The translations under genes were made by a program, and so were the position numbers. Shown here one piece after another: positions 18,616 through 40,498 of a stretch of DNA of 48,711 nt. Location of the stretch: positions 1 through 48,711 of the forward strand of contig JANOBJ010000016.1 in assembly GCA_031411575.1 (NCBI GenBank). Reading direction: 5' to 3'. Positions within the stretch are counted from its first letter, which is position 1; each line of letters begins with the position of its first letter. The notes under the pieces are model-generated. The model was given only the letters and a program-made list of their open reading frames with translations. It had not been told where the DNA came from and did not search any database. This stretch comes from Betaproteobacteria bacterium (lineage in GTDB: Bacteria; Pseudomonadota; Gammaproteobacteria; Burkholderiales; Burkholderiaceae_C).

Positions 18616-18617
18616 CC

Positions 18618-19936: not shown

Positions 19937-19937
19937 G

Positions 19938-20007: not shown

Positions 20008-20040
20008 TTGGTCGGGGCGCCGCAACCGGGCGCCGGGACG

Positions 20041-21751: not shown

Positions 21752-21876
21752 GTGTCAGATGCCGTCAACGGGCTTCAAAACGGGGAGAGTTGCAACCGTA
21801 CCACACTCCGTGAAACTCAGGTGCATTTGCGGACGTGGCAGTACGCGAGCTAGCCGACACATACTACTTAGTAGTT

Positions 21877-21900
21877 AATTTGTACGTCTCGGTACAAATT
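21877..21900. promoter_or_regulatory. Perfect inverted repeat AATTTGTAC-N6-GTACAAATT (candidate operator)
   Basis: 9-bp arms with a 6-bp spacer, read directly from the sequence. Preceded by ACTAC-TTA-GTAGT (21863-21875). Confidence 0.4.
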
Positions 21901-21994
21901 GAACATAAAGTTCGCAAAAATTGCACAAACAAACTGGCTTTGGGGCTTGGACCTGTGGCATGCAAGCTTTGACGTGGGCAGGCGTTCGACATCT

Positions 21995-22014
21995 CTAAAT
22001 TTAGCTACTTAGTT
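21995..22014. promoter_or_regulatory. 10-bp palindrome CTAAATTTAG followed by CTACTTAGT (second copy of a 9-mer also at 21865-21873)
   Basis: Read directly from the sequence. Function unknown. Confidence 0.3.
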
Positions 22015-22271
22015 GTATATAGCGACCCAAGATTAAGCGTGTTTTAAGCCTAATTACAAAGAATTACGGCGATTATGTAGATTTTCACAATAGTCGGATG
22101 CTAGTCTCAAGTTACAAAAAAAGTTCCCCGCGAGTTCAGACTTTTTTGACGGCCGAAATGTGGTGACTGCCCAGATGGGTGGGCCACCCAGTTCGACAAC
22201 ACTTGAAGTCAGTCGCGGGGGCGATGCCAGTCTAAAACTGGCGTTAACCCTAAGTCGTTGGTGAGAACAAA

Positions 22272-23231
22272 ATGAGTGCGACGTCGTTGAATCACGAGAC
22301 CCTGAAGGTCGCTACCAGCGCCTCCAGGTCGTCTTCGATGCACCGGAACACCGGGCATCTGTCGAGTTCCCCTACCGCCGACGCGCCGCGAACGCGTCGG
22401 CCGTTTGGGGATTTCCTGGTCTATTTCGTCCTGTTCGGGCTGACCTGGGGCGTCTGGCAGATCAGCCGCATGGGGTTTTTCAGCGCCGGTGACGACGTTG
22501 GCTACTGGATTGGGGTGGCCGGCGGCGTCATGATGCTGATGCTGTTCACCTATCCACTGCGCAAGCACTTCCGGTTCACGCACCGCTGGGGCAAGGTCAA
22601 GTGGTGGTTCATGGTGCACATGCTGCTGGGGGTCGGCGGCCCGCTGCTGATCCTGCTGCATTCCACGTTTCAGGTCCGCTCGCTCAATGCCGGGGTCGCG
22701 CTGTACAGCATGATCATCGTGGCCCTGAGCGGCGTGATTGGCCGGTTCATCTATGGCCACATCAACCGTGGCCTGCACGGCGAGCAGAGCAGTTTCCGCG
22801 ATCTGCAGTCGCGCGCCGGCCTGCACCAGCGTGAAGCCCGCTCGCGCCTGCGCTTTGCGCCCGCCGTGGAAGCCCGCCTGATCGCGTTTGGCGAGCACGA
22901 ACTGACCGCACGGCCCGGCTTCCTGGCCAGCCTGCGCCGGGTGTTCTGGCTGCCCGTGAAGCAGTGGCTCACCTACCGGGCGTGCATGGCCGAGTTGCGC
23001 AAACCGATGCGCGACCTCGCGGTGCGCGGCGGCTGGGACGAACGCAGCCAGGCCAAGCGGGATCGCCTGGCCCGAAAGCTGGTTCGCCGCTACCTCAACG
23101 CCGTGGTGCGCGTGGCGCAGTTCACCGCCTACGAGCGGCTGTTCTCGCTGTGGCATGTCGCGCACCTGCCGTTTGTCTATCTCCTCGTGATCAGTTCGAT
23201 CGTTCACGTTGTAGCCGTCCACGCCTACTGA
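22272..23231 (+). CDS. 5-TM inner-membrane protein with two His-x13-His pairs (candidate di-haem b-type quinol/quinone oxidoreductase)
   Basis: TM3 'WWFMVHMLLGVGGPLLILLHS' and TM5 'WHVAHLPFVYLLVISSIVHVV' each carry His residues 14 positions apart. A ~115-aa Arg-rich soluble insert lies between TM4 and TM5. First gene after the AT-rich leader. Confidence 0.6.
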   Translation: MSATSLNHETLKVATSASRSSSMHRNTGHLSSSPTADAPRTRRPFGDFLVYFVLFGLTWGVWQISRMGFFSAGDDVGYWIGVAGGVMMLMLFTYPLRKHFRFTHRWGKVKWWFMVHMLLGVGGPLLILLHSTFQVRSLNAGVALYSMIIVALSGVIGRFIYGHINRGLHGEQSSFRDLQSRAGLHQREARSRLRFAPAVEARLIAFGEHELTARPGFLASLRRVFWLPVKQWLTYRACMAELRKPMRDLAVRGGWDERSQAKRDRLARKLVRRYLNAVVRVAQFTAYERLFSLWHVAHLPFVYLLVISSIVHVVAVHAY

Positions 23232-23244
23232 TCCGGGGAACCGG

Positions 23245-25194
23245 TTGTCACCATGGCTGCGACATCACTCCGTCGCCCTGATTCTGCAGGGCCTGCTCGC
23301 CTGCTGCCTGGCAGCCTTCGTGTTGCTGCTGCCCACGGCGGCCGCCGCCCAGAACATCGAGACGATTCTGGCGCCCGGCAAGCTGATTCAGGGTCACGCC
23401 AAATGGGAGCAGGAGTGCTCGCAGTGCCACGTCAAGTTCGACCGCAAGGCGCAGGACGGCCTGTGCCTGGCCTGCCACAAGGATTTGGGGGCTGATGTGC
23501 GCGCCAAAACCGGCTTTCACGGTCGCATGAAGCCGCAGGCATGCAATGTCTGCCACACCGACCACAAGGGTCGTGATGCCAAGATCGTGCTGCTCGACAA
23601 GAAGAAGTTTGACCACACGCTGACCGACTTCCAGCTGCGCGGCAAGCACCAGAAGACCGAGTGCGACAAGTGCCACGTGTCGGGCAAGAAGTACAGCGAG
23701 GCAGCGTCTGACTGCAACAGGTGCCACAAGAAGGACGACGTCCACAAGGGCTCGCTTGGGGCCAAATGCGCTGATTGCCACACCGAAAACAACTGGAAAG
23801 AAACCCGTTTCGACCACGAGAAAACGCGCTTCTCGCTGACCGGCAAGCACGCCGACGTCAAGTGCACCGATTGCCACAAGAACGGCGTCTACAAGGACAC
23901 GCCGCGCACCTGCATCGGCTGCCACAAGAAGGACGACGACAGCGCCAAGGGTCACAAGGGCCAGTTCGGCGAGAAATGCGAGACCTGCCACGGCACCAAG
24001 GCGTGGAAACCGTCCGATTTCAACCACGACACCGACACCAAGTACACCTTGCGCGGCAAGCACCGGACAACGGGCTGCACCGACTGCCACAAGGGCAACA
24101 TCTACCGCGTCAAGCTGAGCCAGGATTGCTACGCCTGCCACCAGAAGGACGACAAGCACAAGGAGTCGCTGGGCAAGGATTGCGGCAGCTGCCACAGCGA
24201 GCGTAGCTGGAAAGAGCCGCCCAAGTTCAACCACGACCAGACCAGCTTTCCGCTGCTGGGCAAGCACGACAAGGTGGAGTGCAAGGATTGCCACAAGAGC
24301 GCCATGTTCAAGGAGGCGCCCAAAGACTGCTATGGCTGCCACAAGAAGGACGACAAGCACGAAACCACGCTGGGCGAAAAGTGCGCGGACTGCCACTCAG
24401 AGCGCGACTGGAAGGTCACGACCGGCCGGTTCGATCACGACCGCACCAAGTTCCAGTTGCGCAACGCGCACGCGGAAAGCACGGTCAAGTGCAATGCCTG
24501 CCACAAGGACCTGAAGAGCTACCGCAAGACGCCGACCGATTGCTACAGCTGCCACAAGAAGGACGACAAGCACGAAGGCCAGCAGGGCAAGCAGTGCGAA
24601 ACCTGCCACAGCGACCGCACCTGGAAGACCACGCGGTTTGACCATGCGCAGACGCGTTTCCCGCTGACCGGCAAGCACGTGGCCACCAAGTGCAGCAGCT
24701 GCCACGAGACCAACCGCTTCAAGGACGCGCCGCGCGACTGCTACTCCTGCCACAAGAAGGAAGACAAGCACAAGCTCAAGTTCGGCGAAAAATGCGAGAG
24801 CTGCCACAACACCCGCGGCTGGCCGATCTGGGATTTTGACCACAACAAGCGCACCGAATACCGGCTGGACGGCAAGCACGTCAAGGTGGCGTGCGAAAGC
24901 TGCCACACCCAGCCGGCGCCCAAGGGCAAGGAAGCCGCGCCGCTGGGCAAGAACTGCATCACCTGCCACCGCAAGGATGACACCCACGACGGCCAGTTTG
25001 GCCCGCGGTGCGAGACCTGCCATGTAACCGAGAACTGGAAGAAGATCACCAGCCGCATCGGCGAACGGGCTGTGGTGCCAGGCGACTGGATTGTGGCGTT
25101 GATGTCGCCACTGGGCGAGGCCAGCCATTTCGCGCGTCGCTCAGACGCGGCAACCACCCGGCCAGCGGCCGACACCGTGGGGGTGCGGCGATGA
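23245..25194 (+). CDS. 24-haem c-type cytochrome (concatenated c7-like trihaem units), secreted
   Basis: 24 CXXCH motifs by manual count. Signal peptide '...LLLPTAAAAQ'. Repeating unit 'C..CHKKDDKH...G..C..CH....W....FDH..T.F.L.GKH....C..CH'. TTG start. Confidence 0.9.
   Translation: MSPWLRHHSVALILQGLLACCLAAFVLLLPTAAAAQNIETILAPGKLIQGHAKWEQECSQCHVKFDRKAQDGLCLACHKDLGADVRAKTGFHGRMKPQACNVCHTDHKGRDAKIVLLDKKKFDHTLTDFQLRGKHQKTECDKCHVSGKKYSEAASDCNRCHKKDDVHKGSLGAKCADCHTENNWKETRFDHEKTRFSLTGKHADVKCTDCHKNGVYKDTPRTCIGCHKKDDDSAKGHKGQFGEKCETCHGTKAWKPSDFNHDTDTKYTLRGKHRTTGCTDCHKGNIYRVKLSQDCYACHQKDDKHKESLGKDCGSCHSERSWKEPPKFNHDQTSFPLLGKHDKVECKDCHKSAMFKEAPKDCYGCHKKDDKHETTLGEKCADCHSERDWKVTTGRFDHDRTKFQLRNAHAESTVKCNACHKDLKSYRKTPTDCYSCHKKDDKHEGQQGKQCETCHSDRTWKTTRFDHAQTRFPLTGKHVATKCSSCHETNRFKDAPRDCYSCHKKEDKHKLKFGEKCESCHNTRGWPIWDFDHNKRTEYRLDGKHVKVACESCHTQPAPKGKEAAPLGKNCITCHRKDDTHDGQFGPRCETCHVTENWKKITSRIGERAVVPGDWIVALMSPLGEASHFARRSDAATTRPAADTVGVRR
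23700..25000 (+). repeat. Intragenic tandem periodicity (~190-220 bp, 64-73 aa, 3 CXXCH per unit)
   Basis: 'TGCCACAAGAAGGA(C/A)GAC' recurs near 23722, 23921, 24134, 24334, 24554, 24747 and 24965. Confidence 0.8.
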
Positions 25195-28100
25195 ACGCAG
25201 GGTTAAGCCGGTCCGGTTTCGGGGCACTGTTCGCCAAGTGGTGCGTGGCCTTGTTGCTTGTGGTCTGCGGCGCGCAGGCGTTTGCACAGGCCGGCGCGAG
25301 GAATTTCGACCACACCAAAACCGGTTTCGCGCTGACCGGCGTGCACATGAACCCGCGCTGCGAGTCGTGCCACATCAGCGGCGTGTTTAAGGGCACACCC
25401 AAAGACTGCGCCAGTTGCCATACGAGCGGCTTCCGCCAGGCGCGCGGCAACATGGTCATGCCGGCCAAGCACCTGCCGACCACCGCCGCCTGCGAGACCT
25501 GCCACAACACGCGTTCGTTCAAGGAAGTCAAGTTCAGCCACGTCGATGTCAAGCCGGGTACATGCGCCACTTGCCACAACGGCACGACGGCTATCGGCAA
25601 GCACGCGGCGCACATGCCGACACAGGCGGCCTGCGACACCTGCCACAAATCAACATCCACGTGGAAATCCGCCAAACCCGACCACAGCGCGTTTACCGCA
25701 ACGACCAACTGCGCGAGTTGCCACGGGTCCACGGCCACCGGCAAGTCGGCGAACCATATTCCTGTCGCGGCCAGTGTCAGCTGCCTGAGCTGCCATACCG
25801 TGACAGGCTGGAAGCCCACCAAGTTCAACCACACGCAAGTGGCCGTGGCCGGCCAGTGCGCCACCTGCCACAGCGGGGCGTTCCCGCCGGCCGACGGCAG
25901 GACCGCCAACCATATTCCGTACCAAAGCGTCAACGGCGTTGCCAACGCCGGCTGCGAGAGCTGCCACAAGGCGGGCTATACGGCATGGGCCCCGGCGACG
26001 TTCCACGGCAGCTTCTCTGTCACTGGCCAATGCGCCACATGCCACACCGGCAACAACCCCAAAGCGGTTGGCAAGCACCCAACGCACGTGCCCACGGCGG
26101 CAGCCTGCGAGACCTGCCACAAGACCACCGGCTGGAAAGGCGCCAAGCCCGACCACGCCAGCTTCACGGCCGCGACCAACTGCGCCACTTGCCACAACGG
26201 CACCAACGCCACGGGCAAGACGGCCGTGCACATCCCGGTGGCGGCCAACGTCAACTGCTTCAGCTGCCACAGCGTGGCGGGCTGGAAGCCCACCAAGTTC
26301 AACCACACGCAAGTGGCCGTGGCCGGCCAGTGCGCCACCTGCCACAGCGGGGCGTTCCCGCCGGCCGATGGCAAGACGGCCAACCACATCGTCTACCAGA
26401 ACATCACCGGCATTGGCGCCAACGCCAGCTGCGAGAGCTGCCACAAGGCTGGCTACACGGCCTGGGCGCCGGCCAAGTTCCACGCCAGCTACACCGTCAC
26501 GGCCCAGTGCGCCACCTGCCACACCGGGGCCAACCCGCTGGCCGTGGGCAAGCCGGCCAACCACCTGCCCACCACGGCGGCCTGCGAGACCTGCCACAAG
26601 ACCACCGGCTGGATCGGGGCGAAGGTTGATCACAGCGGATTCACGACGGCTACCAATTGCACCACTTGTCACAACGGCACGACGGCTACTGGCAAGCCCG
26701 TTGTGCACCCGGTGACAACCGCCAACTGCATCACGTGTCACACGACGGTCGCATGGACTGGCGCCAAGGTTGATCACACCAGCTTCACGGCAGCCACCAA
26801 TTGCGCGAGCTGCCACAACGGTGCAACCGCAACCGGCAAGCCGGTGGTGCATGTCCCGACCACCGCCAATTGCTTCAGCTGCCACACGGTCGCGGGCTGG
26901 AAGCCCACCAAGTTCAACCACACCCAAGTGACGGTTACGGGCCAATGTTCGACTTGCCACAGTGGCGCGTTCCCGCCGGCCGATGGCAGGCCCACCAACC
27001 ACATCCCGTATCAGACACTGAGCGGCGTTGCCATCACCAACTGTGACAGCTGCCACAAGGGTGGCTACGCAGCATGGGCGCCGGCCCGGTTCCACAGCAG
27101 CGTCTCTGTCAGCAACCAGTGTGCAAGCTGCCACACCGGCAACTTCCCGCCCGCCGTCGGCAAGCCCAATACCCCGATCCACGCCGGGGTGACCAATTGC
27201 GAGAGCTGCCACAAGACCACGGGCTGGGCGGGTGCCAAGGTGGACCACTCGACGTTCACCATGGCGACCAACTGCTCGAGCTGCCACAACGGGACAACAG
27301 CTACCGGCAAACGCGGAAACCACATCCCGACTGCCGTCAACTGCTTCAGCTGCCACAGCACGACCGGCTGGATTCCCACCAAGTTCAACCACAGCCAGGT
27401 CGTCACGGCCAACCAGTGCTCGACTTGCCACAGTGGCGCGTTCCCACCCGCCGATGGCCGGCCGATCAGTCATATCCCGTATCAGCTGCTGAGTGGCGTC
27501 GCGGTCACCAACTGCGATACCTGCCACAAGGGCGGATTTGCGGCTTGGACCCCCGCACGGTTCCACGGCTCGGTGTCGGTCAGCAACCAGTGCCATACCT
27601 GCCACATGGGTACCTACTCACCGGGGCAACGCCGACCCAATAACGTCACGCACAGTGCGATCACCAGTGGTTGCGAGAGCTGCCACAAGTCAACCGCCAG
27701 CTGGTTGACGGTGGTGTTTACCCACTCGCCAGCGAATGCCGTGGGCACCGGTACCTGTGATACCTGCCACAACGGTACGTCCGCCAAAGGCAAGCCGGCG
27801 ACCCACATCCCGGTGCCGGCTGGCGTTGCAAAGTGCGATTCCTGCCACCGTTCGCAGACCAGCTTCGCGACGGCGGTCACGATGAACCATAGCGTGGTCA
27901 CGACCGCCACCTGCAAGTCTTGCCACAACGGCAGTTACACCTCCCAGGGGACGACCGGTGCGCTCGCCAAACCGGTCAACCATATTCCGGAGGCGCAGTT
28001 GCTTAACGGTGCCAACATGGACTGCAAGGCCTGTCATACGAGCACGACCAGCTGGGGGACGATGCGAATGGACCACAACGCCAGCCAGGGTGGTGGTGCC

Positions 28101-28265
28101 GGATGGTGCAAGTCATGCCACGCATCAGGAACCAATTTCCTGGGCAATATGGACAAGAAATCCCTGACCCACAGAACCAAAACGCCAGCTGCGATTGACT
28201 GTTCCGAGGCGGGTTGCCACCGTCCCCTGGGTAGCCGGGGGACCCCATACAGCAGGTGGAACTGA
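25191..28265 (+). CDS. 36-haem c-type cytochrome, Thr/Ala/Asn/Gly-rich, secreted (candidate cell-surface component)
   Basis: 36 CXXCH motifs plus one CX4CH ('CSEAGCH') by manual count. ATGA overlap with the upstream gene. Signal peptide '...VVCGAQAFAQ'. The portion of ORF 25008.. upstream of 25191 overlaps the previous gene. Confidence 0.9.
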   Translation: MNAGLSRSGFGALFAKWCVALLLVVCGAQAFAQAGARNFDHTKTGFALTGVHMNPRCESCHISGVFKGTPKDCASCHTSGFRQARGNMVMPAKHLPTTAACETCHNTRSFKEVKFSHVDVKPGTCATCHNGTTAIGKHAAHMPTQAACDTCHKSTSTWKSAKPDHSAFTATTNCASCHGSTATGKSANHIPVAASVSCLSCHTVTGWKPTKFNHTQVAVAGQCATCHSGAFPPADGRTANHIPYQSVNGVANAGCESCHKAGYTAWAPATFHGSFSVTGQCATCHTGNNPKAVGKHPTHVPTAAACETCHKTTGWKGAKPDHASFTAATNCATCHNGTNATGKTAVHIPVAANVNCFSCHSVAGWKPTKFNHTQVAVAGQCATCHSGAFPPADGKTANHIVYQNITGIGANASCESCHKAGYTAWAPAKFHASYTVTAQCATCHTGANPLAVGKPANHLPTTAACETCHKTTGWIGAKVDHSGFTTATNCTTCHNGTTATGKPVVHPVTTANCITCHTTVAWTGAKVDHTSFTAATNCASCHNGATATGKPVVHVPTTANCFSCHTVAGWKPTKFNHTQVTVTGQCSTCHSGAFPPADGRPTNHIPYQTLSGVAITNCDSCHKGGYAAWAPARFHSSVSVSNQCASCHTGNFPPAVGKPNTPIHAGVTNCESCHKTTGWAGAKVDHSTFTMATNCSSCHNGTTATGKRGNHIPTAVNCFSCHSTTGWIPTKFNHSQVVTANQCSTCHSGAFPPADGRPISHIPYQLLSGVAVTNCDTCHKGGFAAWTPARFHGSVSVSNQCHTCHMGTYSPGQRRPNNVTHSAITSGCESCHKSTASWLTVVFTHSPANAVGTGTCDTCHNGTSAKGKPATHIPVPAGVAKCDSCHRSQTSFATAVTMNHSVVTTATCKSCHNGSYTSQGTTGALAKPVNHIPEAQLLNGANMDCKACHTSTTSWGTMRMDHNASQGGGAGWCKSCHASGTNFLGNMDKKSLTHRTKTPAAIDCSEAGCHRPLGSRGTPYSRWN
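25800..27500 (+). repeat. Intragenic tandem modules of 471-615 bp (157-205 aa, ~6-7 CXXCH each)
   Basis: The anchor 'GCTGGAAGCCCACCAAGTTCAACCAC' (GCTGGATTCCCACC... in the fourth copy) is at 25807, 26281, 26896 and 27367. Positions 25807-25894 and 26281-26368 are identical over 88 nt. Confidence 0.85.
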
Positions 28266-28283
28266 TTGGCGAGGGCTTTCCTG

Positions 28284-28312
28284 CTTTGCCAATGGGGCAA
28301 TTGCTGGCAAAG
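28284..28312 (+). other. Intercistronic stem-loop CTTTGCCA-N13-TGGCAAAG
   Basis: Perfect 8-bp stem. The loop contains the palindrome GCAATTGC. Lies in the only sizeable gap (92 nt) of the cytochrome cluster. Confidence 0.4.
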
Positions 28313-28357
28313 TCCTGTCGGTGACAAAAATCAACAGTTCGTAAAATCTGCCACAAC

Positions 28358-30757
28358 ATGAAATTCCCCCTGCGCCTGCTGGCCGCGCCGATTGTTCTGG
28401 CTTCAGCCTGTCCGCTCGCATTCGCTCAGTTGATCGAAGACATCGAGATTCGGCGCGAGGGGTCCAATGCCATCGCCAGCGTTCGATTTGTAACGGCCAT
28501 CCAGTTTCAGCGCGTCACCACCTCCCGCGCCGGCGACCTGGGGCAGGCGTTCTATGACGTATTGCCCAGTCGCCAGACCCTGAGCCTCGTCAGCGGCCAG
28601 CGCCGCGTGCCGGGAGCTGGCTCGATTCCCGAAATCGAGGTGACCGACGAACCTGTTGGGAAAGCGAATCTGAGTCGCAAGCTCATTATTCGTTTCTCCG
28701 CACCCACACGTTTCCGCATCCGGGCGGGGCGTGGCAATCGCAGCATTGAAGTCGTGATGGAAGGGCTTGGCGATTCGGTGCGCCTCGCTGCCGTCACCGC
28801 CCCTGTCAGCGCCGCACCGCCCCAACAAAACTATATCGTTACCCTGCAGTCATCGGCGGACCCGGGACATAACCTACAAGGATCCGTTCCGGCCAGGTTG
28901 CAGCAGTACCAGACATTCACCTCCCGCAGGACGGTGGACGGCAAGACGCTGTACGACATCAATCTTGGCTATTTCGGTACGCTGGCTGACGCCGAAGAAG
29001 CACGCGAGATTCTGGTTTCGCGGTTTCCCCAAGCGACGATTGCCGCTCTGCAGGCCCCTGCCGGCACCGATTCCGGGCCAGGCAGCGCGCCGGCGGAAGT
29101 CGAAGCCAATGCCGCCAATTTGCTGGCGGTTGCACAGGCGGCCTCCGACCGCGGCGATTTTGCAGCATCGCTCGATCCCTTGAGCCAGTTGCTGAACCTT
29201 CCCCCCAATACGTCGTCGCGGCGGGCACAGGAACTGATTGGCTTGTCGCGCCTCAAGCTGGGCGACTCCGTGCGGGCCCGCGCCGAGTTTGAAGCGTTCC
29301 TGAATCTTTACCCCACAGGCGCGGACAGTGATCGGGTACGGGACGTCCTGGCGACGGTTCCAGCAGCCCCCCCAACTGCGGCGGCAGCGCCTCCGCCGCC
29401 GCCCGCCTCCAACTGGAGCGGGTCGGTCTCCACGTTCTTTTTTGGTGGGCAGTCCAAAGTGCGCAGCCAGGAATTTCTGGATTCACCGATCAGCGGACTG
29501 CCTGAACTGCAGGGCGAAAACACGATTTCGGGGACGGACCAGAAGCAGGTTCAGACCAACGTGGACCTCAACTGGCGCCGTCGCGACGCCGAAGCTGACC
29601 AGCGCTTCGTGTTTCGCGACTCCTACACCGCTGACCTGTTGCCCAACGGAAGAAACAGGAACCGCTTGTCGGCGCTGTACTACGACCACAAATCATTCAC
29701 CAATGGCACCAGCTTTCGCGTCGGGCGGCAGTCGCCGACTGGTGGCGGCGTGCTGTACCGGTTCGACGGGTTGCAGGCCGGGTACACGTTTCGCCCGAAG
29801 TGGAAGGCCAATGCCGTCTTTGGCGCGCCGACCGATGACTTGCTTCAAACGCGCAGGCGCCTGTATGGCGCGTGGATAGACGCCGAAGCTCTGACCAACG
29901 AAATCAGTGGGAGCCTTTACTTCAACCAGCAGACCATCGACAGCGAAGTGGACCGACGGGCCGTGGGGACCGAACTGCGCTATTTCAGTGGTGGCGTGTC
30001 GCTGTCAGCGCAGTTCGACTACGACGTGGTGCTCAAGGGTCTCAATATTGCTTCCCTGCAGGGTACCTGGCAATTGCCGGACACCACGGTTTTCAACTTC
30101 CTGTACGACCGGCGCACGACGCCGCTCCTTTCATTGGGGAACACCCTCTTTTTCCAGAACCCCGCGCTGGTGACACCGGCTCAACGCATCCAGGACTTGC
30201 TGACCACCTCGTCGATCTCGCAATTGCGGGAGCAAGTGAAGGGCATTACGGCATATCAGACGCAGGGTTTGGTGGGCGTGACAACACCGCTTGCGAAGAA
30301 CTGGCAAATCGGCGCCGATATCCGGCTGACCAATGTGGGCGAAGTCCGACCGGTGCCGATCATTTTGCCCAACGGGCAAGCGAGCACCGGAAACCAATGG
30401 AGCGTGGGCGGTCAACTCATTGGCACCAATCTGTACTCACAGCGTGATACCCATGTTCTCAGCGCAACATTGCTTAAATCGCCTACTTACAGCGGCTATT
30501 TGCTCTCCTATAACAACCTGACGACGATTGGCGAAGGTTGGCAAATCGAGCCATCGCTCAGGTTCTCCCATCAGAACGAAAATACCGGTGCCCGAACGGT
30601 TCGCTGGGCGCCGGGCTTGCGGGTAACGTACAAACTCATGCAGCAGGTATCGCTGGAGTCTGAACTGTCCTACGAGCGATCCAAGAGAACCTCTCCCGTG
30701 CTAAATGAAACCTCCGACCGGCTTTTTTACTACCTCGGTGCCCGCTACGACTTCTGA
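28358..30757 (+). CDS. Outer-membrane beta-barrel protein with N-terminal periplasmic domains (AMIN-like, SPOR-like, TPR-like)
   Basis: Signal peptide 'MKFPLRLLAAPIVLASACPLAFAQ'. SPOR-like 'YIVTLQSSADPG...TLYDINLGYFGTLADAEEAREIL'. TPR-like 'GDSVRARAEFEAFLNLYP'. Pro/Ala linker. ~450-aa C-terminal region with alternating hydrophobicity that ends 'YYLGARYDF'. Confidence 0.7.
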   Translation: MKFPLRLLAAPIVLASACPLAFAQLIEDIEIRREGSNAIASVRFVTAIQFQRVTTSRAGDLGQAFYDVLPSRQTLSLVSGQRRVPGAGSIPEIEVTDEPVGKANLSRKLIIRFSAPTRFRIRAGRGNRSIEVVMEGLGDSVRLAAVTAPVSAAPPQQNYIVTLQSSADPGHNLQGSVPARLQQYQTFTSRRTVDGKTLYDINLGYFGTLADAEEAREILVSRFPQATIAALQAPAGTDSGPGSAPAEVEANAANLLAVAQAASDRGDFAASLDPLSQLLNLPPNTSSRRAQELIGLSRLKLGDSVRARAEFEAFLNLYPTGADSDRVRDVLATVPAAPPTAAAAPPPPPASNWSGSVSTFFFGGQSKVRSQEFLDSPISGLPELQGENTISGTDQKQVQTNVDLNWRRRDAEADQRFVFRDSYTADLLPNGRNRNRLSALYYDHKSFTNGTSFRVGRQSPTGGGVLYRFDGLQAGYTFRPKWKANAVFGAPTDDLLQTRRRLYGAWIDAEALTNEISGSLYFNQQTIDSEVDRRAVGTELRYFSGGVSLSAQFDYDVVLKGLNIASLQGTWQLPDTTVFNFLYDRRTTPLLSLGNTLFFQNPALVTPAQRIQDLLTTSSISQLREQVKGITAYQTQGLVGVTTPLAKNWQIGADIRLTNVGEVRPVPIILPNGQASTGNQWSVGGQLIGTNLYSQRDTHVLSATLLKSPTYSGYLLSYNNLTTIGEGWQIEPSLRFSHQNENTGARTVRWAPGLRVTYKLMQQVSLESELSYERSKRTSPVLNETSDRLFYYLGARYDF

Positions 30758-30767
30758 TGCACGCGCA

Positions 30768-32068: not shown

Positions 32069-32092
32069 ACCACCGGCTGCGCGACCAAAACC

Positions 32093-32854
32093 ATGGCAAC
32101 GTCACTTCGCTTCTTTACGTTTGCAGCGCCTTCGCGCTTTTATGCGCTCGCGGGCGCGCTTCTTCCCTGGCTGTGGGCCCTGACAGCGGCATTGACACTT
32201 GCCGGGCTGTACATCGGCTTTTTTGTGGCGCCGACGGATGCCACACAAGGCGATGCCTACCGGATCATCTTTATTCATGTCCCGGCGGCCTGGATGTCCA
32301 TGCTGCTGTATCTGGTGATGGCGGGCTGGGCCGTGATTGGCTGGGCGTTTAATGCCCGCCTGGCGTCCATGGTCGCCCGGGCGATTGCGCCAACGGGTGC
32401 GATGTTCACCTTCATCGCGCTGTGGACGGGCGCCTTGTGGGGAAAACCCACTTGGGGCACGTGGTGGGTGTGGGATGCGCGGCTCACGTCGGAACTTATC
32501 CTCCTGTTCCTGTATCTCGGATATATCGCGTTGGTTGAGTCGATTGATGAACAGCGCCGCGCAGACAGTGCCGGAGCGTTGCTCGCATTGATCGGTGTCA
32601 TCAATATTCCGATCATCTATTTCTCCGTCAAATGGTGGAATACGCTGCATCAGGGTGCCACCATCAGTGCGACGGCAGCGCCCAAGATGGCGAGCACGAT
32701 GCTGACGGCGATGTTGTTGATGACAGCAGCGTGTTGGGCGTACTCGTTCGCGGTTGTTTTCATGCGGGCGCGTGCCATAGTCATGGAGCGTGAACGTCAC
32801 GCGGATTGGGCTTCGGAGTTGACGCAGCAGCAAGCGGTGAGGGCACGGGCATGA
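32093..32854 (+). CDS. ccmC: Haem exporter protein C
   Basis: WWD motif 'WGKPTWGTWWVWDARLT'. Confidence 0.93.
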   Translation: MATSLRFFTFAAPSRFYALAGALLPWLWALTAALTLAGLYIGFFVAPTDATQGDAYRIIFIHVPAAWMSMLLYLVMAGWAVIGWAFNARLASMVARAIAPTGAMFTFIALWTGALWGKPTWGTWWVWDARLTSELILLFLYLGYIALVESIDEQRRADSAGALLALIGVINIPIIYFSVKWWNTLHQGATISATAAPKMASTMLTAMLLMTAACWAYSFAVVFMRARAIVMERERHADWASELTQQQAVRARA

Positions 32855-33021
32855 ACTGGGGTAGCGCGAGTGAGTTTTTTGCAATGGGCGGGTATGGTCT
32901 CTACGTGTGGGGTTCGTATGCGGTGGCAGGGCTCGTGCTGGCAATCGAACCGCTCTTGGCGTTTCGCAGGCACAACCGTGCACTACGCGACATCCGCTCA
33001 ATCGACGAACAGGAGCATTGA
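32851..33021 (+). CDS. ccmD: Haem exporter protein D
   Basis: 56-aa single-TM protein ('YGLYVWGSYAVAGLVLAIE'). ATGA overlap with ccmC. Start set at the internal ATG at 32851. Confidence 0.8.
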   Translation: MNWGSASEFFAMGGYGLYVWGSYAVAGLVLAIEPLLAFRRHNRALRDIRSIDEQEH

Positions 33022-33483
33022 ATGAAACCTCGACACAAACGTCTGGCGATCGCTGGCGCGGTACTTGCCGTCGTGGGCGTTGCAGTGGCATTGGTACTCA
33101 ATGCCTTCAACAGCAATCTTGTATTCTTTTACTCGCCGTCGCAGATCGCCGCCAAGGAAGCGCCAACCGGGCGCACCTTTCGCCTGGGCGGCCTTGTCGA
33201 GGCCGGCAGTGTCAAGCGTGATGGCGTGCAGGTCAGTTTCGTCGTGACCGACACCGCCAAAACCGTCCCGGTGCGGTACCAGGGCATCCTTCCTGATCTG
33301 TTCAAGGAGGGCAAAGGTGTGGTGGCCCAGGGCCAACTGCGCAATGGGGTGTTTGAAGCCCGCGAGGTGCTCGCCAAACACGACGAAAACTACATGCCAC
33401 CAGAAGCGGCGGAAGCCTTGAAGCGCGCGGGCGCCGTCAACGGCAAGGTGGCTGAGTCAGTGGTAACGGAGCAAAAGCGATGA
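33022..33483 (+). CDS. ccmE: Cytochrome c-type biogenesis haem chaperone
   Basis: N-terminal TM anchor and '[12 protein letters not shown]' haem-binding His-x3-Tyr. Confidence 0.93.
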
Positions 33484-35468
33484 TTCCTGAGATTGGGCAC
33501 TTCCTGCTCTGGCTGGCACTGGGGGTATCACTGGTTCTGGGCACATTGCCGATGGCGGGCGCGGCGCGCCGCAATACGGAGTGGATGTTGCTGGCCCGGC
33601 CGGCGGCCTACACGCTGTTCGTGCTGATAGGCCTGGCCTTTCTTTGCCTGGTGGTGTCTTTCGTGCGGCACGATTTTTCCGTGATGAACGTCGCATCCAA
33701 TTCGAATTCCGCACTGCCGCTGCCCTATCGCATCGCGGCGAGTTGGGGTAGCCACGAAGGGTCATTGTTGTTGTGGGCCCTGATGCTGAGCGGATGGACG
33801 TTTGCCGTGGCGCGCTTCAGCGCCCATTTGCCGCTGCCCGTGCTGGCACGAACACTGGCGGTGATGGGATTGATCAGCGTTGGCTTCCTGCTGTTCATGC
33901 TGCTGACGTCAAACCCGTTTGACCGCCTGTTCCCGGCACCTGCGGACGGGCGCGATCTGAACCCCCTGCTGCAGGACCCGGGCATGGTGTTCCACCCCCC
34001 GTTGCTGTACATGGGCTATGTCGGGTTCTCTGTGGCGTTTGCATTTGCCATTTCAGCATTGATTGGCGGCAATCTCGATTCGACTTGGGCGCGCTGGACG
34101 AGGCCTTGGACAACCGTGGCGTGGATGTTCCTGACTGTCGGCATCGCGCTTGGAAGCTGGTGGGCCTACTACGAACTGGGCTGGGGCGGATGGTGGTTCT
34201 GGGATCCGGTCGAGAACGCGTCATTCATGCCCTGGCTGATCGGGACCGCCCTGATTCATTCCCTTGCCGTGACCGAAAAGCGGGGCAGCTTCAAATCCTG
34301 GACGGTCCTGCTGGCGATCGTGGCGTTCTCGTTGTCATTGCTCGGTACATTTCTGGTCCGCTCCGGTGTGTTGTCGTCCGTGCATGCGTTTGCGACCGAC
34401 CCGAAGCGCGGCCTCTTCATCCTGGCATTCCTGACCATCGCCGTGGGTGCTTCGCTGGCGCTTTACGCGTGGCGTGCGCCCAAAGTGGGGCTGGGCGCCA
34501 GGTTTTCACTGGTGTCTCGCGAAACGGCTCTCCTCGGGAACAACGTGATGCTGGTGGTGGCCGCTGCGGCGGTTTTGCTGGGTACGCTCTACCCCTTGCT
34601 GCTGGACGCATTGGGCATGGGCAAGATCTCGGTGGGTCCGCCGTATTTTGATTCCGTGTTCATGCCGCTGATGGCGCCAGCGCTGTTCTTGATGGGTATC
34701 GGCCCTATCACCCGTTGGCGGGAGGCCGAGTTGCCCGACATTGCGCGCCGATTGCGTTGGGCGATGGCTGTGGCCATCATCGCCGCGCTGGCCACTGGCT
34801 GGATAGCCGGCCGCATTTCCGTGGTGGCGACCATCGGGCTTGTCATGGCGTTCTGGGTGATGGCGTCGGTGGCCACTGATTTCTGGGACAAGGTGCACAC
34901 GCCTGGCGGCGGCTTGACCGGTGTGCCCCGCAAAATCCGCCAATTGCCGCGTGCAACCGTGGGCATGATGGTGGCGCATCTGGGCGTCGCGGCTTTTTGC
35001 TTTGGCGTCACGATGGTCAAAACGTACGAAGTCGAGCGTGACGTACAGATGGAAATCGGCGACAGCACGACAGTCAATGGCTACACCTTCACCTTCAGGG
35101 GCGCGCGCGAGGTAGCAGGGCCCAACTACGCGGCCATGCGCGGGCTCGTGGAAGTCACGCGTGACGGGAAGAAAATTACGGACATGCGGCCGGAAAAGCG
35201 CGTCTACCGCGTCCAGCAAAACCCGATGACGGAAGCCGCCATTTACCCCCGTGTGACCGGCGATCTCTACGTGTCCCTGGGGGAGCCCACTGAGCGCGGT
35301 GCGTGGATCGTCCGCGTTTATGTCAAGCCGTTCATTGACTGGATCTGGGGTGGCTGCCTGATCATGGCGCTGGGTGGTTTGCTGGCTGCCACAGACCGGC
35401 GATATCGCTCCAAGGTCAGGAAGGATCAGCCTGAGGCGTCCACCGGTACTGCGGGCGCTGCGGTATGA
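33480..35468 (+). CDS. ccmF: Cytochrome c haem lyase subunit
   Basis: 662-aa polytopic protein with WWD motif '[14 protein letters not shown]'. Confidence 0.95.
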
Positions 35469-35995
35469 AACAACTCAAGTTTCTGGTTCCGCTGGCCTTC
35501 TTCTTCGGCCTGGTCGCCTTTCTTGCGGCAGGACTGAAGCTGGATCCCAAGGAGGTGCCGTCACCGCTGATCAACAAGCCCGCGCCGTCATTCGCACTGA
35601 CCCGCCTGGACGACGCTGCGCAGACGATACGCAGGGAGGATCTGCTGGGTAAAGTCTGGATGCTCAACGTGTGGGCGTCCTGGTGCGTGGCGTGCCGCGA
35701 AGAGCATCCGCTACTGGTTGAGTTCTCGGCGAAAAAACTGGTCCCGATCTACGGCCTCAACTACAAGGACGAGCGCGGTGCCGGTAGCCAATGGCTGTCG
35801 CGTTTTGGCAATCCGTACCAGGCGTCGTTGTTTGATCAGGATGGGCGTGTGGGCATCGACTGGGGTGTCTACGGGGTACCCGAGACGTTCGTTGTGGACC
35901 GCGCGGGCATGATCCGCTTCAAGCACATCGGTCCGCTCACACCCGAAGTGATCCGCACGCAGGTTGAACCGCTGGTGAGGCAGCTCAATGGCTAA
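35465..35995 (+). CDS. ccmG: Thiol:disulfide interchange protein DsbE/CcmG
   Basis: 'WASWCVACREEHP' thioredoxin CxxC and 'GVYGVPETF'. Confidence 0.93.
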   Translation: MKQLKFLVPLAFFFGLVAFLAAGLKLDPKEVPSPLINKPAPSFALTRLDDAAQTIRREDLLGKVWMLNVWASWCVACREEHPLLVEFSAKKLVPIYGLNYKDERGAGSQWLSRFGNPYQASLFDQDGRVGIDWGVYGVPETFVVDRAGMIRFKHIGPLTPEVIRTQVEPLVRQLNG

Positions 35996-36446
35996 GTGGC
36001 TCATCCTGATCATGCTGGCCTTCGGGGCGTGCTTGCTGCAGGCCAAGGAGGCTGCGCCTGCGTCCGAAGACCCGGTGCTGGAAGCCCGCATGGTGAAGAT
36101 TGCGGCAGAGCTGCGTTGCCTGGTCTGCCAGAACCAGACGATTGCCGACTCGCACGCCGGGCTGGCCGTTGATTTGCGCAACCAGGTGCGCGAAATGCTG
36201 CGCCGGGGCGAAACCGACCGGCAGATCATCGACTACATGACGGCACGCTACGGTGATTTTGTGCTGTATCGGCCTCCTCTGAAAAACACCACGGCCCTGC
36301 TTTGGTTTGGGCCGGGCGTGCTGCTGGTCGGGGGATTGGTAACCTTGTTCTTCGTGCTGCGTAGACGCAGCCGGATGGACCCGGAACTCTTCGAGGCGGA
36401 TGAACCGGAGGTGAACGATGACATCCGCCCCACTACGGCCAAATAG
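35988..36446 (+). CDS. ccmH: Cytochrome c-type biogenesis protein CcmH
   Basis: 'LRCLVCQNQTIADS' LRCxxC motif, signal peptide, C-terminal TM. Confidence 0.92.
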   Translation: MAKWLILIMLAFGACLLQAKEAAPASEDPVLEARMVKIAAELRCLVCQNQTIADSHAGLAVDLRNQVREMLRRGETDRQIIDYMTARYGDFVLYRPPLKNTTALLWFGPGVLLVGGLVTLFFVLRRRSRMDPELFEADEPEVNDDIRPTTAK

Positions 36447-36477
36447 ACAGCCAAATACACGGCCATACTGAATCACT

Positions 36478-37758
36478 ATGGATTACGACATTCCCACGAT
36501 ACGCCGCCAACTGGTGCAGCTCAAGGAGTTGCATGAAGCCGGGGTGTTGCCGGCCGCGCAATACGAAGAAGGCAAGGCCGCACTGGAGCGCCGCGTGCTT
36601 GATCTCGTCATGAGCGGTGCTTCTGACATCTCCCCATCATCGCCACCAATGCCGGCGGGCGCCAACGCTGCGACCGGCGCGCCGGGTCAACCCGCAGCGG
36701 CGCCTGTAGCGCCCAAGCCATCCAGCCGTCTCGTGATCACGCTGGGCATTGCGATTTTGGCGGTGGCCGCTGGTGGCTACTGGTGGATGGGTTCACCCAC
36801 CTTGGTGGGGGGTGGCCCAGTGGCTACGGGCTCCCCCGCCGGTGGTGCGAGCGGCGGCGCAGGAGGCGAGGCATCTCATCCCACCAGCACCGAGCAGATC
36901 GCCGCGATGGTCGACAAACTGGCGGCGCGCATGAAAGAGGCGCCGGATGACGCAGAGGGCTGGGCCATGCTGGCCCGCTCGTACACCGTGCTGGGCCGCC
37001 ACCCCGAAGCGCTGACCGCATACGAGAAAGCCGTCAAGCTGCGCAAGGACGATCCTCAACTGCTGGCCGACTACGCTGATTCACTGGCTGTCAAGAACGA
37101 CCGCAAGCTCGCTGGAGAGCCCATGAAGTGGGTGGAAGCCGCGCTCAAGCTCGATCCCAAGAACCTCAAAGCGCTGGCACTCGCAGGTACATACGCGTTT
37201 GAACGGAAAGACTACGCGGGCGCGGTGAAGTACTGGGACCAGGTGGTCGAGGTTGGCCCGCCCGACAGCAACTACGTGCAACAGGTGCAGGCCGGCCTGG
37301 TCGAGGCGCGTCAGCTGGGCGGCCTTCCCCCACCCAAGCCCACCGCCAAGGTGCCGGCTGCAGCAGGAGTGGTACCCGCCGCCGCAGCGCAGGGGCCGTC
37401 CGCACTGGTCGAGAAGGCCGTCAGCGGCACCGTGTCCCTGTCGCCTGCGCTGTCAGCGCAGGTCAGCCCGGGCGACACCGTCTTCATCTTTGCCCGCGCG
37501 GCCGAAGGCGAGCAGCGCATGCCGCTGGCCATTTTGCGCAAGCAGGCCAAGGAGTTGCCCATCACCTTCACATTGGATGACAGCTCGGCCATGTCGCCTG
37601 CCGCCAAGATATCCGATGCCAAATCGGTGATCATCAGCGCGCGCATCAGCAAGACGGGTGAAGCCCTTCCGAAGCCAGGCGACCTGTCGGGTCAATCGGC
37701 TCCGGTCAGTGTCGGTACTTCTGCGTTGAAAATCGAAATCCGGGACCAGGTGAAGTAG
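36478..37758 (+). CDS. ccmI: Cytochrome c-type biogenesis protein CcmI (TPR), atypical N-terminus
   Basis: TPR region 'AEGWAMLARSYTVLGRHPEALTAYEKAVKL...'. Single TM 'LVITLGIAILAVAAGGYWWM'. N-terminal SHOCT-like helix pair 'LVQLKELHEAGVLPAAQYEEGKAALERRVL'. Lies after ccmH. Confidence 0.8.
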   Translation: MDYDIPTIRRQLVQLKELHEAGVLPAAQYEEGKAALERRVLDLVMSGASDISPSSPPMPAGANAATGAPGQPAAAPVAPKPSSRLVITLGIAILAVAAGGYWWMGSPTLVGGGPVATGSPAGGASGGAGGEASHPTSTEQIAAMVDKLAARMKEAPDDAEGWAMLARSYTVLGRHPEALTAYEKAVKLRKDDPQLLADYADSLAVKNDRKLAGEPMKWVEAALKLDPKNLKALALAGTYAFERKDYAGAVKYWDQVVEVGPPDSNYVQQVQAGLVEARQLGGLPPPKPTAKVPAAAGVVPAAAAQGPSALVEKAVSGTVSLSPALSAQVSPGDTVFIFARAAEGEQRMPLAILRKQAKELPITFTLDDSSAMSPAAKISDAKSVIISARISKTGEALPKPGDLSGQSAPVSVGTSALKIEIRDQVK

Positions 37759-37806
37759 CCTACGATGGCCCTGTTCGTGGCCTGCCGTGTCGCGAGGTGA
37801 AGCGCA

Positions 37807-39096
37807 TTGGACTACATCTATCTTTATCTGGCCGTCGTAGGCCTTTTCATCATTCTCTACTTGCGGCGTCGCCAGCGCCGTCATGCGGCGCACCACGCCG
37901 AGTACGTTGAAGCCGCTGAGCAGGGGCTCAACGAGCCACCTTCCCTTCATCCCGTGGTCGATCCGGTGCGCTGCATCGGGTCGGGCGCTTGCGTTAAGGC
38001 TTGCCCTGAGGAAGCGCTGGGGATCGTCGCGGGCAAGGCGGTGCTCAAGAATGCAGCCGCCTGCATCGGTCACGGGGCGTGCTTGGCGGCCTGCCCGGTC
38101 GAGGCGATCAAGCTGGTGTTTGGCACCGAGAAGCGCGGCATCGACATCCCCAACGTAAACCCCAAGTTCGAGTCCAACGTGCCAGGGATTTTTATTGCCG
38201 GTGAACTCGGGGGAATGGGCCTGATTCGCAAGGCGGCTGAGCAGGGGCGTCAGGCGATTGAGTCGATCAAGGCGCGCGGAACCGGCAAGGCCGACTATGA
38301 CGTGGTGATCGTCGGCTGCGGGCCGGCGGGATTTTCGGCGGGGCTTTCGGCGATCGCATCCAAGCTGCGCTACAAGTTGATCGAGCAGGAAGACTCACTC
38401 GGCGGTGCCGTGTACCACTACCCGCGCCAGAAAATAGCGATGACCGCTCCGATCAAGCTCGACCTCATAGGCCAGGTGAAGTTTGGTGAAGTCCAGAAGG
38501 AAACGCTGCTGCAGTTCTGGCTGGACGCGGTCAAGAAAACCGGCCTCCAGATTGCCTTTCGTGAACGCATGGAAGGCATCGAACGCGAGTCCAAAGGCTT
38601 TGTGGTGCAAACCAACCGCGGCAGCTATGCCACCCACAGCGTGCTGCTCACCATGGGGCGGCGCGGCACGCCGCGCAAGCTGGATGTGCCGGGCGAAGAC
38701 ACCCACAAGGTGATGTACCGCCTGATCGACCCGGCCCAATACGAGGGGCAGGCCGTCCTGGTGGTGGGCGGCGGCGACAGCGCGCTGGAGGCCGCCATTG
38801 CCTTGTCTGAGGAGAAGGGCACCGACGTCACGCTGTCCTACCGCAGCGCTGCCTTCTCGCGGGTCAAGCAGAAGAACCGCATGTTGCTGGAGCAGCAACA
38901 GACAGCCGGACGGCTGCGGGTGCTGCTCAACTCGACCGTGAAGCAGATCCATGAGACCGAAGTCGAAATGGAGCACGACGGCGGCGTACACCGCTACCGC
39001 AATGACGCGGTCATCGTGTGCGCGGGTGGCTTGCTGCCCACGCCGCTGCTGCAAAAAGTGGGCATCCAGTTCGAAACCAAGCACGGCACAGCCTGA
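37807..39096 (+). CDS. Membrane-anchored 2x[4Fe-4S] ferredoxin fused to a thioredoxin-reductase-like FAD/NAD(P) oxidoreductase
   Basis: TM 'IYLYLAVVGLFIILYL'. 'CIGSGACVKACP' and 'CIGHGACLAACP'. 'DVVIVGCGPAGFSAG' (FAD) and 'VLVVGGGDSALEAA' (NAD(P)). The usually C-terminal 'NVPGIFIAGE' motif precedes the GxGxxG. TTG start. Confidence 0.8.
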   Translation: MDYIYLYLAVVGLFIILYLRRRQRRHAAHHAEYVEAAEQGLNEPPSLHPVVDPVRCIGSGACVKACPEEALGIVAGKAVLKNAAACIGHGACLAACPVEAIKLVFGTEKRGIDIPNVNPKFESNVPGIFIAGELGGMGLIRKAAEQGRQAIESIKARGTGKADYDVVIVGCGPAGFSAGLSAIASKLRYKLIEQEDSLGGAVYHYPRQKIAMTAPIKLDLIGQVKFGEVQKETLLQFWLDAVKKTGLQIAFRERMEGIERESKGFVVQTNRGSYATHSVLLTMGRRGTPRKLDVPGEDTHKVMYRLIDPAQYEGQAVLVVGGGDSALEAAIALSEEKGTDVTLSYRSAAFSRVKQKNRMLLEQQQTAGRLRVLLNSTVKQIHETEVEMEHDGGVHRYRNDAVIVCAGGLLPTPLLQKVGIQFETKHGTA

Positions 39097-39136
39097 GCGC
39101 CTGTTGCTTTGCGTGTTCCGTCGCCTGGTGGGCGCG

Positions 39137-40492: not shown

Positions 40493-40498
40493 TGCACG

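Follow-up and report, generated by a model that had tools for sequence, protein, structure and literature searches.

A PCC3 electron-conduit cluster with an embedded ccmABCDEFGHI operon and a flavin/iron–sulfur oxidoreductase: a probably ancient Comamonadaceae assemblage

How a complete cytochrome c maturation operon comes to be wedged into a cluster of genes for extremely haem-rich proteins, and whether it was brought there from elsewhere or has long belonged to the lineage, is the question raised by a 48,711-nucleotide stretch of DNA from Betaproteobacteria bacterium (GenBank assembly GCA_031411575.1, contig JANOBJ010000016.1, positions 1 to 48,711 of the forward strand; the whole stretch is referred to below as the window). 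Fourteen co-directional genes on the plus strand, at positions 22272-39096, encode the components of a PCC3-type electron conduit, the System I proteins CcmABCDEFGHI and an oxidoreductase designated here as FerOx. A previous reading made from the sequence alone, without database searches (the sequence-only reading), had suggested that this 17-kb block is a self-sufficient module, acquired as a unit together with a dedicated System I, many betaproteobacteria being users of System II. The comparative analysis described here indicates that the block is probably an ancient, vertically maintained Comamonadaceae cluster of three functional parts (PCC3, ccmABCDEFGHI and FerOx), whose ccm operon most likely represents the general-purpose System I of the lineage itself as opposed to an imported extra. 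The analysis lends no support to the recent gain of a second, dedicated maturation system.

The genes of the block, and the leader that precedes them, are as follows.

21752-22271, no strand assigned: AT-rich intergenic leader, 520 bp, 46.9% GC, between a divergent SulP gene and the first module gene
22272-23231, plus strand: PCC3 inner-membrane protein (IMP), 319 aa, likely di-haem cytochrome-b-like, with WX3HX13H and SGXXG motifs
23245-25194, plus strand: periplasmic multihaem cytochrome c, 649 aa, 24 CXXCH motifs, 27 aa per haem, K/D-rich
25191-28265, plus strand: extracellular-type multihaem cytochrome c, 1024 aa, 36 CXXCH motifs and one CX4CH, T/A/G/S-rich, internally repetitive
28358-30757, plus strand: PCC3 outer-membrane porin, 799 aa; a signal peptide and N-terminal beta domains precede a TPR-like helical domain, and the C-terminal part forms a beta-barrel
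30768-31400, plus strand: ccmA, haem-exporter ATPase, NCBIfam NF010061 and TIGR01189 above cut-offs, Walker A motif GHNGSGKT
31397-32068, plus strand: ccmB, Pfam CcmB (1.6e-68)
32093-32854, plus strand: ccmC, Pfam Cytochrom_C_asm, WWD motif WGTWWVWDAR
32851-33021, plus strand: ccmD, 56 aa, TIGR03141 (1.8e-14)
33022-33483, plus strand: ccmE, haem chaperone, Pfam CcmE, HDENY motif with the haem-binding His at residue 120
33480-35468, plus strand: ccmF, haem lyase, Pfam CcmF_C (1e-131), TIGR00353 (775 bits), WWD motif
35465-35995, plus strand: ccmG/dsbE, thiol:disulfide oxidoreductase, TIGR00385, CVAC motif
35988-36446, plus strand: ccmH, Pfam CcmH (1.3e-48), LRCLVC motif
36478-37758, plus strand: ccmI/cycH, apocytochrome chaperone, Pfam TPR_CcmH_CycH and Ig_CycH, one predicted transmembrane helix
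37807-39096, plus strand: FerOx, membrane-anchored oxidoreductase, 429 aa, with an N-terminal transmembrane helix, the motif RRRQRR, a 2x[4Fe-4S] ferredoxin domain and a YpdA/thioredoxin-reductase-like FAD/NAD(P)H domain

Gene content, order and spacing agree in full with those given in the sequence-only reading, the successive gaps being 13 nt, an overlap, 92 nt, 10 nt, an overlap, 24 nt, an overlap, 0 nt, three overlaps, 31 nt and 48 nt. Its count of 60 haem-attachment motifs in the client proteins was likewise reproduced, with 24 and 36 CXXCH motifs in the two cytochromes plus the single CX4CH, as was the AT-rich character of the leader. The start of ccmA lies only 10 nt past the porin stop codon, no terminator-like sites were found in either the 10-nt or the 92-nt gap, and the spacing suggests that the 14 genes are probably co-transcribed as one unit. 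The leader is presumed to be the promoter or regulatory region, and an AT-rich dip is likewise evident in relatives, 100-300 bp upstream of the first module gene. No Rfam family matched the leader, and the number of sites returned by a promoter scan of it was not above chance. Two copies of CTACTTAGT plus a TTGTAC-N6-GTACAA palindrome are present within it, at 21864-21897 and 22004-22018. These elements were considered as conserved operators and set aside, being confined to the window and absent from the leaders of the 17 relatives scanned.

Judged by motifs, haem counts and a structural model of the porin, the first four genes of the block correspond to the published definition of PCC3, which includes an IMP of ∼300 aa with two WX3HX13H motifs, SGXXG and five transmembrane helices (He et al. 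2017, Front Microbiol, PMC5566968). The IMP of the window carries WX3HX13H at residues 112 and 294 and SGXXG (as SGVIG) at residue 153, although a crude hydropathy scan resolved 3-4 helices compared with the five in the definition; the protein has no Pfam or NCBIfam match. The porin also has no Pfam match, and an AlphaFold2 model of it (pLDDT 71, pTM 0.41) shows ∼20-22 long antiparallel strands across residues 353-797. Foldseek searches with this model returned outer-membrane barrels only, at low TM-scores (0.2-0.5), and with moderate confidence the outer-membrane component is predicted to be a beta-barrel. Homologues of the porin are detectable in considerable number (744), the best named ones being from Comamonadaceae.

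The ccm set is complete and in canonical order, with Pfam or NCBIfam matches above cut-offs for all nine proteins. The hallmark motifs are all intact, comprising the WWD motifs of CcmC and CcmF, HDENY in CcmE, LRCxxC in CcmH, CxxC in CcmG and Walker A in CcmA, and the set is predicted to attach haem to apocytochromes c.

The distribution of this arrangement in other genomes was examined next. Identical 14-gene order is present in Hydrogenophaga sp. PAMC20947 and in Polaromonas jejuensis, and a scan of a genome collection with the porin alignment yielded 41 loci (designated below by L numbers), which were sorted by tblastn of the 14 window proteins. In 24 distinct loci, here termed type A, the gene directly after that for the porin is ccmA or ccmB; many of these loci are truncated by the end of the contig, and the run is complete through ccmI and FerOx in 14 of the longer ones. 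The gap between porin and ccmA is 1-48 nt in every type A locus with a placeable start codon. The order recurs in Hydrogenophaga, Polaromonas, Rhodoferax-like and Hylemonella genomes, and also in the distant metagenomic loci L066, L074 and L082, which represent two distant lineages. Both the proposed coupling of ccm to the multihaem cluster, evident in the 10-nt junction and in an order kept as a unit in many genomes, and the conservation of the module as such are therefore borne out by the type A loci and their distant counterparts. One of these, L066 (contig FSSH01000771, positions 145-20333, GC 0.57), has the IMP gene on the opposite strand, followed by genes for a 40-haem cytochrome, the porin, CcmA-I and FerOx, with a second cytochrome gene, encoding 33 haem sites, downstream on the minus strand.

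Two further arrangements were observed. In 11 loci (type B), the porin is followed by ccmI alone and then, where the contig reaches, by FerOx; ccmI is full-length in two of these loci, five others retain no more than residues ∼19-300 (∼100-280 in L014), and the remaining four retain the C-terminal residues ∼280-426. In four loci (type C), FerOx directly follows the porin. In a neighbour-joining tree of the porins, types B and C are nested within type A at no fewer than two places, and L066 and L074, the distant outgroups, likewise belong to type A. The simplest reading of this nesting, given the type A outgroups, is that linkage of PCC3, ccm and FerOx is ancestral and that ccmA-H has been deleted repeatedly, with differing bounds. 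The comparison thus indicates that PCC3, ccm and FerOx are separable parts, lost independently in different lineages, that nevertheless tend to sit together.

The phylogeny of the ccm genes themselves was also considered. All trees were constructed by neighbour joining, with the genus labels of metagenome-assembled genomes (MAGs) used as deposited, and CcmF was sampled from 80 metagenome loci and a protein database; one locus, L053 (Ga0116177_10002844), was left out since it is a near-perfect palindrome with ccm mirrored at ∼6350, and is probably an assembly artefact. Among representatives at 50% identity, the nearest outside clusters were those of a low-GC stand-alone operon (64% identity) and of a stand-alone operon near nap in Iodobacter (56%). 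A distant donor of this kind was considered and rejected when denser sampling gave many closer Burkholderiales operons, both stand-alone and PCC3-linked. A single clade holds the PCC3-linked CcmF proteins of Comamonadaceae together with stand-alone Skiveiella-type operons, and its sub-groups follow genus labels. The concatenated CcmC/E/F/G tree joins the window to Hydrogenophaga loci (90% bootstrap), and the module clade nests among stand-alone high-GC ccm operons within an enclosing clade of 100% support. The phylogenetic check on CcmF and CcmC proposed in the sequence-only reading can be answered to this extent: the trees, by neighbour joining, follow genus labels and give no sign of a distant donor. 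The notion of a foreign, dedicated System I is not supported by the same evidence, namely grouping of Ccm by genus and nesting in stand-alone Burkholderiales operons.

Operons of the same clade are found between yfiH and phaCAB, without PCC3, and encode CcmF proteins 79-80% identical to that of the window. A 90% cluster of these yfiH-ccm-phaCAB operons includes Ca. Skiveiella danica, a member of the Comamonadaceae, and from its neighbours the context is judged to be a housekeeping one. The existence of such same-clade, stand-alone operons indicates that this lineage's ccm is native to the family and can function where PCC3 is missing. Were the operon a passenger of the electron-transfer cluster, the lineage's ccm would be absent from relatives that lack the cluster, and Ca. 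Skiveiella danica is a relative in which it is present. A particularly close comparison is provided by L042 and L140, which are ∼94% identical across ccm-pha and 89% identical across GST-yfiH, with PhaC proteins 97.6% identical at the amino acid level. The sole difference between them is a 9.4-kb PCC3 cassette between yfiH and ccmA (positions 1175-10554 in L042, against 6877-7269 in L140), which ends ∼24 nt before the ccmA start in L042; the replaced intergenic sequences of the two loci have no mutual similarity. Cytochrome ORFs (open reading frames) are fragmented in L042, which may reflect decay of the cassette. A scan of all ORFs of 140 loci, for which the CcmC and CcmF WWD domains served as queries, yielded no CcsA-like protein of the kind that would belong to System II, and the only literature located on ResB/CcsA in these genera was the paper of Baker et al. 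(2022, mBio, PMC8805035).

The chromosomal surroundings of the module were compared as well. In the window, the SulP gene (minus strand) lies upstream of the block, and genes for a sulfatase, TctC and an Lhr-type helicase lie downstream. The genes folE, BLUF and p298 (window 17929-19937) are located just upstream of the module in four loci of the Hydrogenophaga group (L004, L005, L007 and L016), with one or two variable genes (YitT or GNAT) between them and the first module gene. At the other end, SNase (window 44149-44542) comes directly after FerOx in the same four loci and in L021 and L010. Relative to these loci, the window has the SulP gene inserted upstream and the sulfatase-TctC-Lhr genes inserted downstream. 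Ahead of the module, five contigs from the same species are laid out as in the window; all of them end within the repetitive 36-haem gene. These shared neighbours indicate that the module is old at the window's site in one sub-lineage. Its presence in other contexts elsewhere, and its absence from this site in three loci (L134-L136), indicate that some movement or differential loss occurred, and the patchy distribution across the family is attributed to loss and rearrangement, and possibly to occasional transfer. The synteny comparison proposed in the sequence-only reading thus gives a divided picture: contexts differ across genera and the module is missing from the site in L134-L136, a neighbourhood that is also rearranged, and at least five Hydrogenophaga-group loci share the neighbours.

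MBL-fold exonuclease, ATP-dependent ligase and Lhr-type helicase usually form a ligase-associated DNA-damage-response set. In the window the exonuclease and ligase genes (15010-17804) are 24 kb from the helicase gene (41651-44059), the folE-BLUF genes, SulP, the module, the sulfatase and TctC lying between them. In the Hydrogenophaga locus L005 there is no exonuclease or ligase between PLD and folE.

Base composition was among the features on which the proposal of an acquired block had drawn, and it was re-examined across the window. Bulk GC is 0.656 at 1-21751, 0.469 in the leader, 0.622 in the block and 0.677 at 39097-48711. The block is thus of lower GC than its flanks, as had been stated, but by 3-6 points and not by the 10-20 of the original spot counts. 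In the first three genes, third-position GC (GC3) is 0.83-0.87 and the codon-adaptation index, calculated with the flank genes as reference, averages 0.66; in these respects they match the 27 flank genes (Mann-Whitney p ∼0.9). From the porin to FerOx, GC3 is 0.63-0.80 (mean 0.72) as against a flank-gene mean of 0.83 (most 0.82-0.91), and the codon index is 0.31-0.57 (mean 0.47) as against 0.66 in the flanks, deviations associated with Mann-Whitney p values of ∼1e-5 to 5e-5 for the two measures. The anomalous stretch is therefore 28358-39096, or ∼10.7 kb, with a sharp step down at the porin start and recovery after FerOx, so that the codon deviation ascribed to all 17 kb holds for this portion only, and the profiles that the sequence-only reading had asked for differ from the flanks between porin and FerOx but not over the whole block. 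Across 40-odd related loci, module GC tracks host GC (0.53-0.72), and GC3 of ccm is not lowered relative to the cytochrome genes. The suggestion that the block was acquired as a single compositional unit is not supported by these comparisons.

Of the features by which a genomic island might be recognised, deviation in composition was found across 28358-39096 as opposed to the whole unit, and hallmarks of mobility were absent. No tRNA gene was found in the window, no Rfam element was matched, no integrase or transposase domain was detected by Pfam in the genes scanned, neighbours included, and a search for porin homologues on plasmids returned none. The AT-rich sequence ATTGCTATAATATTAATAGCAA, a near-palindrome of 22 nt, occurs in four intergenic copies (3247-3268, 19987-20008, 44077-44098 and 45490-45511), counted with up to 3 mismatches, where 0 would be expected by chance. 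Two of these extend, at 19970-20008 and 44077-44115, to a 39-nt, 85% inverted repeat bracketing 24 kb that comprises SulP, the module and sulfatase-TctC-Lhr; the bracketed interval is exactly the one enclosed by the pair of genes found on either side of the module in Hydrogenophaga relatives. The inverted repeat was considered as an island boundary and rejected, as it belongs to a dispersed family of four palindromes; the element could be an operator or a REP-like (repetitive extragenic palindromic) sequence, and might serve as a substrate for rearrangement. The sequence-only reading was essentially right that no integrase, tRNA or direct-repeat boundary is visible, the sole bracketing repeat being inverted and of this dispersed family. 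A recent island was rejected in consequence, as the searches for tRNA genes and Rfam elements, for mobility domains, for repeats at the boundaries and for copies on plasmids all failed to lend it support.

Several observations speak for the rival model of a horizontally acquired, self-sufficient island that brought its own System I into a System II host. The chromosomal surroundings of the unit change from genus to genus, L134-L136 lack it at the syntenic position, and part of it has lowered GC3 and codon adaptation. Moreover, genomes that retain multihaem genes but have lost ccmA-H must mature these proteins with another system, and complete ccmA-I operons are reported to travel with mtrCAB (Ramlibacter, Polaromonas, Caenimonas), four strains having System II elsewhere in the genome (PMC8805035). 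Against this, the compositional shift begins at the porin and not at the block edge, the first three genes resembling the flanks; neither mobility genes, tRNA, island-specific repeats nor a plasmid homologue of the porin came to light; no fewer than five loci of the Hydrogenophaga group have flanking genes in common with the window; the Ccm phylogeny follows genus groupings and is nested in Burkholderiales stand-alone operons; and ccm of the same clade stands alone in a housekeeping context in a member of the Comamonadaceae. The premise of a System II host is also not general, as Baker et al. reported no System II in Polaromonas sp. EUR3 or Caenimonas. On balance, acquisition of the whole block as an island is considered unlikely. 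Less likely again is a mosaic origin, in which an old module had segment 28358-39096 overwritten by homologous recombination from a lower-GC relative. The abrupt change in GC3 and codon index between the 36-haem gene and the porin would be accounted for in this way, Polaromonas and Rhodoferax-like loci with module GC3 of 0.60-0.72 exist as conceivable sources, and FerOx, CcmE and CcmG are slightly nearer to Polaromonas-type than to Hydrogenophaga-type proteins. However, the porin, CcmA, CcmB, CcmC and CcmH are nearer to the Hydrogenophaga type, so per-gene identities give no coherent donor signal, and the IMP, which lies outside the dip, is also nearer to the Polaromonas type. The nearest sequenced relatives, at 60-87% identity, are too distant to resolve a recombination tract, and relaxed codon selection on weakly expressed genes would explain the dip equally well. 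That ccm and PCC3 are neighbours by chance, without functional or transcriptional coupling, seems highly improbable: although ccm can stand alone and PCC3 occurs without adjoining ccmA-H, a 1-48 nt junction is kept in at least 25 loci that belong to several genera and to two distant lineages, ccm sits between two PCC3-associated genes, those for the porin and FerOx, and the 10-nt and 92-nt gaps are free of terminator-like sites.

An ancient, vertically maintained cluster therefore remains the probable explanation, and there are several points that weigh against it. The module is missing after folE-BLUF in L134-L136, in which folE is 88-90% identical to that of the window; in these loci the order is NUDIX-PLD-exonuclease-ligase-folE-BLUF followed by unrelated regulatory genes, and the neighbourhood is also rearranged relative to the window. 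The contexts of the module in Polaromonas and in Hydrogenophaga sp. PAMC20947 are unrelated. The low GC3 and atypical codons of the porin-to-FerOx segment are not explained by vertical inheritance and are not shown by relatives. The trees, all by neighbour joining, are compared with genus labels as deposited, and the argument for co-transcription is one from gene spacing.

The identity of FerOx as a constant companion of the conduit emerged from the same comparison of loci. FerOx adjoins the porin, or a ccmI remnant, in 15 loci without ccmA-H, and the loci listed with FerOx by the porin are L012-L014, L017, L022, L025, L027, L028, L030, L031, L035, L039, L040, L066 and L139. It is a steadier neighbour of the porin than ccm is, and is kept even in a distant lineage in which the porin is only 32% identical. 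Retention of FerOx by the porin in loci without ccmA-H indicates that it belongs functionally with PCC3 and not with ccm, and gene neighbourhood identifies it as a core PCC3 partner in the Comamonadaceae-type clade. A primary role as supplier of reductant to Ccm, in substitution for DsbD/CcdA, was considered and rejected, as FerOx persists without ccm and is absent from stand-alone ccm operons. Since the motif RRRQRR follows the transmembrane helix, the Fe-S/flavin part is predicted to be cytoplasmic.

Taken together, the three parts suggest how the locus might operate. One long transcript issuing from the AT-rich leader would make the apocytochromes together with the machinery for haem export and attachment needed at 60 CXXCH sites, such that maturation capacity would rise in step with an extreme demand for haem, a stoichiometric coupling. 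The 24-haem protein would span the periplasm and the 36-haem protein would extend from the porin, as proposed in the PCC3 literature, and the mature complex would move electrons between the inner membrane and extracellular iron or manganese minerals, or other acceptors or donors. The conduit of the block would in this way mediate extracellular electron transfer (EET), and FerOx may feed or drain the di-haem-b IMP. A more speculative proposal, on balance doubtful, is that PCC3, the embedded ccm genes and FerOx constitute a complete, quinone-independent 'plug-in' electron conduit. FerOx, membrane-anchored and facing the cytoplasm, would take electrons from NAD(P)H via FAD and two [4Fe-4S] clusters and hand them to the two b-haems of the IMP, the pair forming a split transmembrane wire resembling that of NOX or ferric reductases. 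Electrons would then pass via the 24-haem periplasmic and 36-haem extracellular cytochromes to acceptors outside the cell, and co-transcribed Ccm would represent the conduit's built-in assembly line. If correct, PCC3 would gain a defined inner-membrane partner and a direction, and the retention of FerOx despite loss of ccm would be explained.

PCC3 is widespread in iron-oxidising and other freshwater bacteria, and is here tied, across a family, to a complete haem-attachment operon, placing a biogenesis system beside an extreme client with 60 haems in two proteins. FerOx is a candidate for the missing partner of PCC3 on the cytoplasmic side, and the repeated deletions of ccmA-H, as well as the presence or absence of PCC3 beside a resident ccm operon, amount to natural experiments on dispensability. 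The analysis also corrects the interpretation of the block as a recent genomic island.

The locus can be compared with three known systems. One is PCC3 as originally described (PMC5566968) and since surveyed also in Gallionellaceae and Leptothrix (PMC9900912, PMC13386937). Here as there, an IMP, periplasmic and extracellular multihaem cytochromes and a large porin are encoded in one cluster, the 24 and 36 haems are near the published medians of 21 and 34, with ∼27-28 aa per haem, and the large cytochrome is T/A/G/S-rich. The published cluster, however, consists of four genes, whereas in the window, and in numerous other Comamonadaceae loci, the genes for the porin and the oxidoreductase have ccmA-I between them; no mention of an adjoining ccm operon, or of an Fe-S/flavin oxidoreductase, was found in the PCC3 literature searched. 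With the canonical System I operon, ccmABCDEFGH(I) of Alpha-, Beta- and Gammaproteobacteria, the ccm genes of the block agree in gene order, domains and catalytic motifs. They differ in having no upstream intergenic region of their own, with ccmA placed 10 nt after the porin, and in encoding a CcmI with a single predicted transmembrane helix (residues 81-104), in which the usual first helix appears to be missing. The first ∼45 residues of this CcmI align to the cytoplasmic-loop part (positions 41-77) of the TIGR03142 N-terminal model, and the transmembrane helix is followed by a Pro/Ala-rich linker.

The third system, and the nearest precedent, is that of Baker et al. (2022), who described six mtrCAB clusters beside complete ccmA-I operons and interpreted the latter as passengers. 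Four of the six are in Betaproteobacteria (Ramlibacter, Polaromonas sp. EUR3, Caenimonas and bacterium SpSt-328), and System II was noted elsewhere in the genomes of four strains and not reported in the others (PMC8805035). In both cases a porin-multihaem EET cluster lies directly beside a full System I in Comamonadaceae-type bacteria, and the proposed logic, that maturation machinery is kept with its heavy client, is the same. The locus described here differs in that the conduit is PCC3 and not MtrCAB/MtoAB, in the presence of an additional conserved oxidoreductase, and in that the association is probably old and largely vertical, with ccm most likely native to the family. The PCC3-ccm and Mto-ccm situations are linked by a Leptothrix sp. 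MAG (L139, JBFPGZ010000037, positions 1-15762), a combined PCC3/Mto/ccm 'electron-transfer island' in which the gene for a PCC3-type porin is succeeded by those for a cytochrome b, a small cytochrome c, MtoA and MtoB, and these in turn by ccmA-I and the FerOx homologue.

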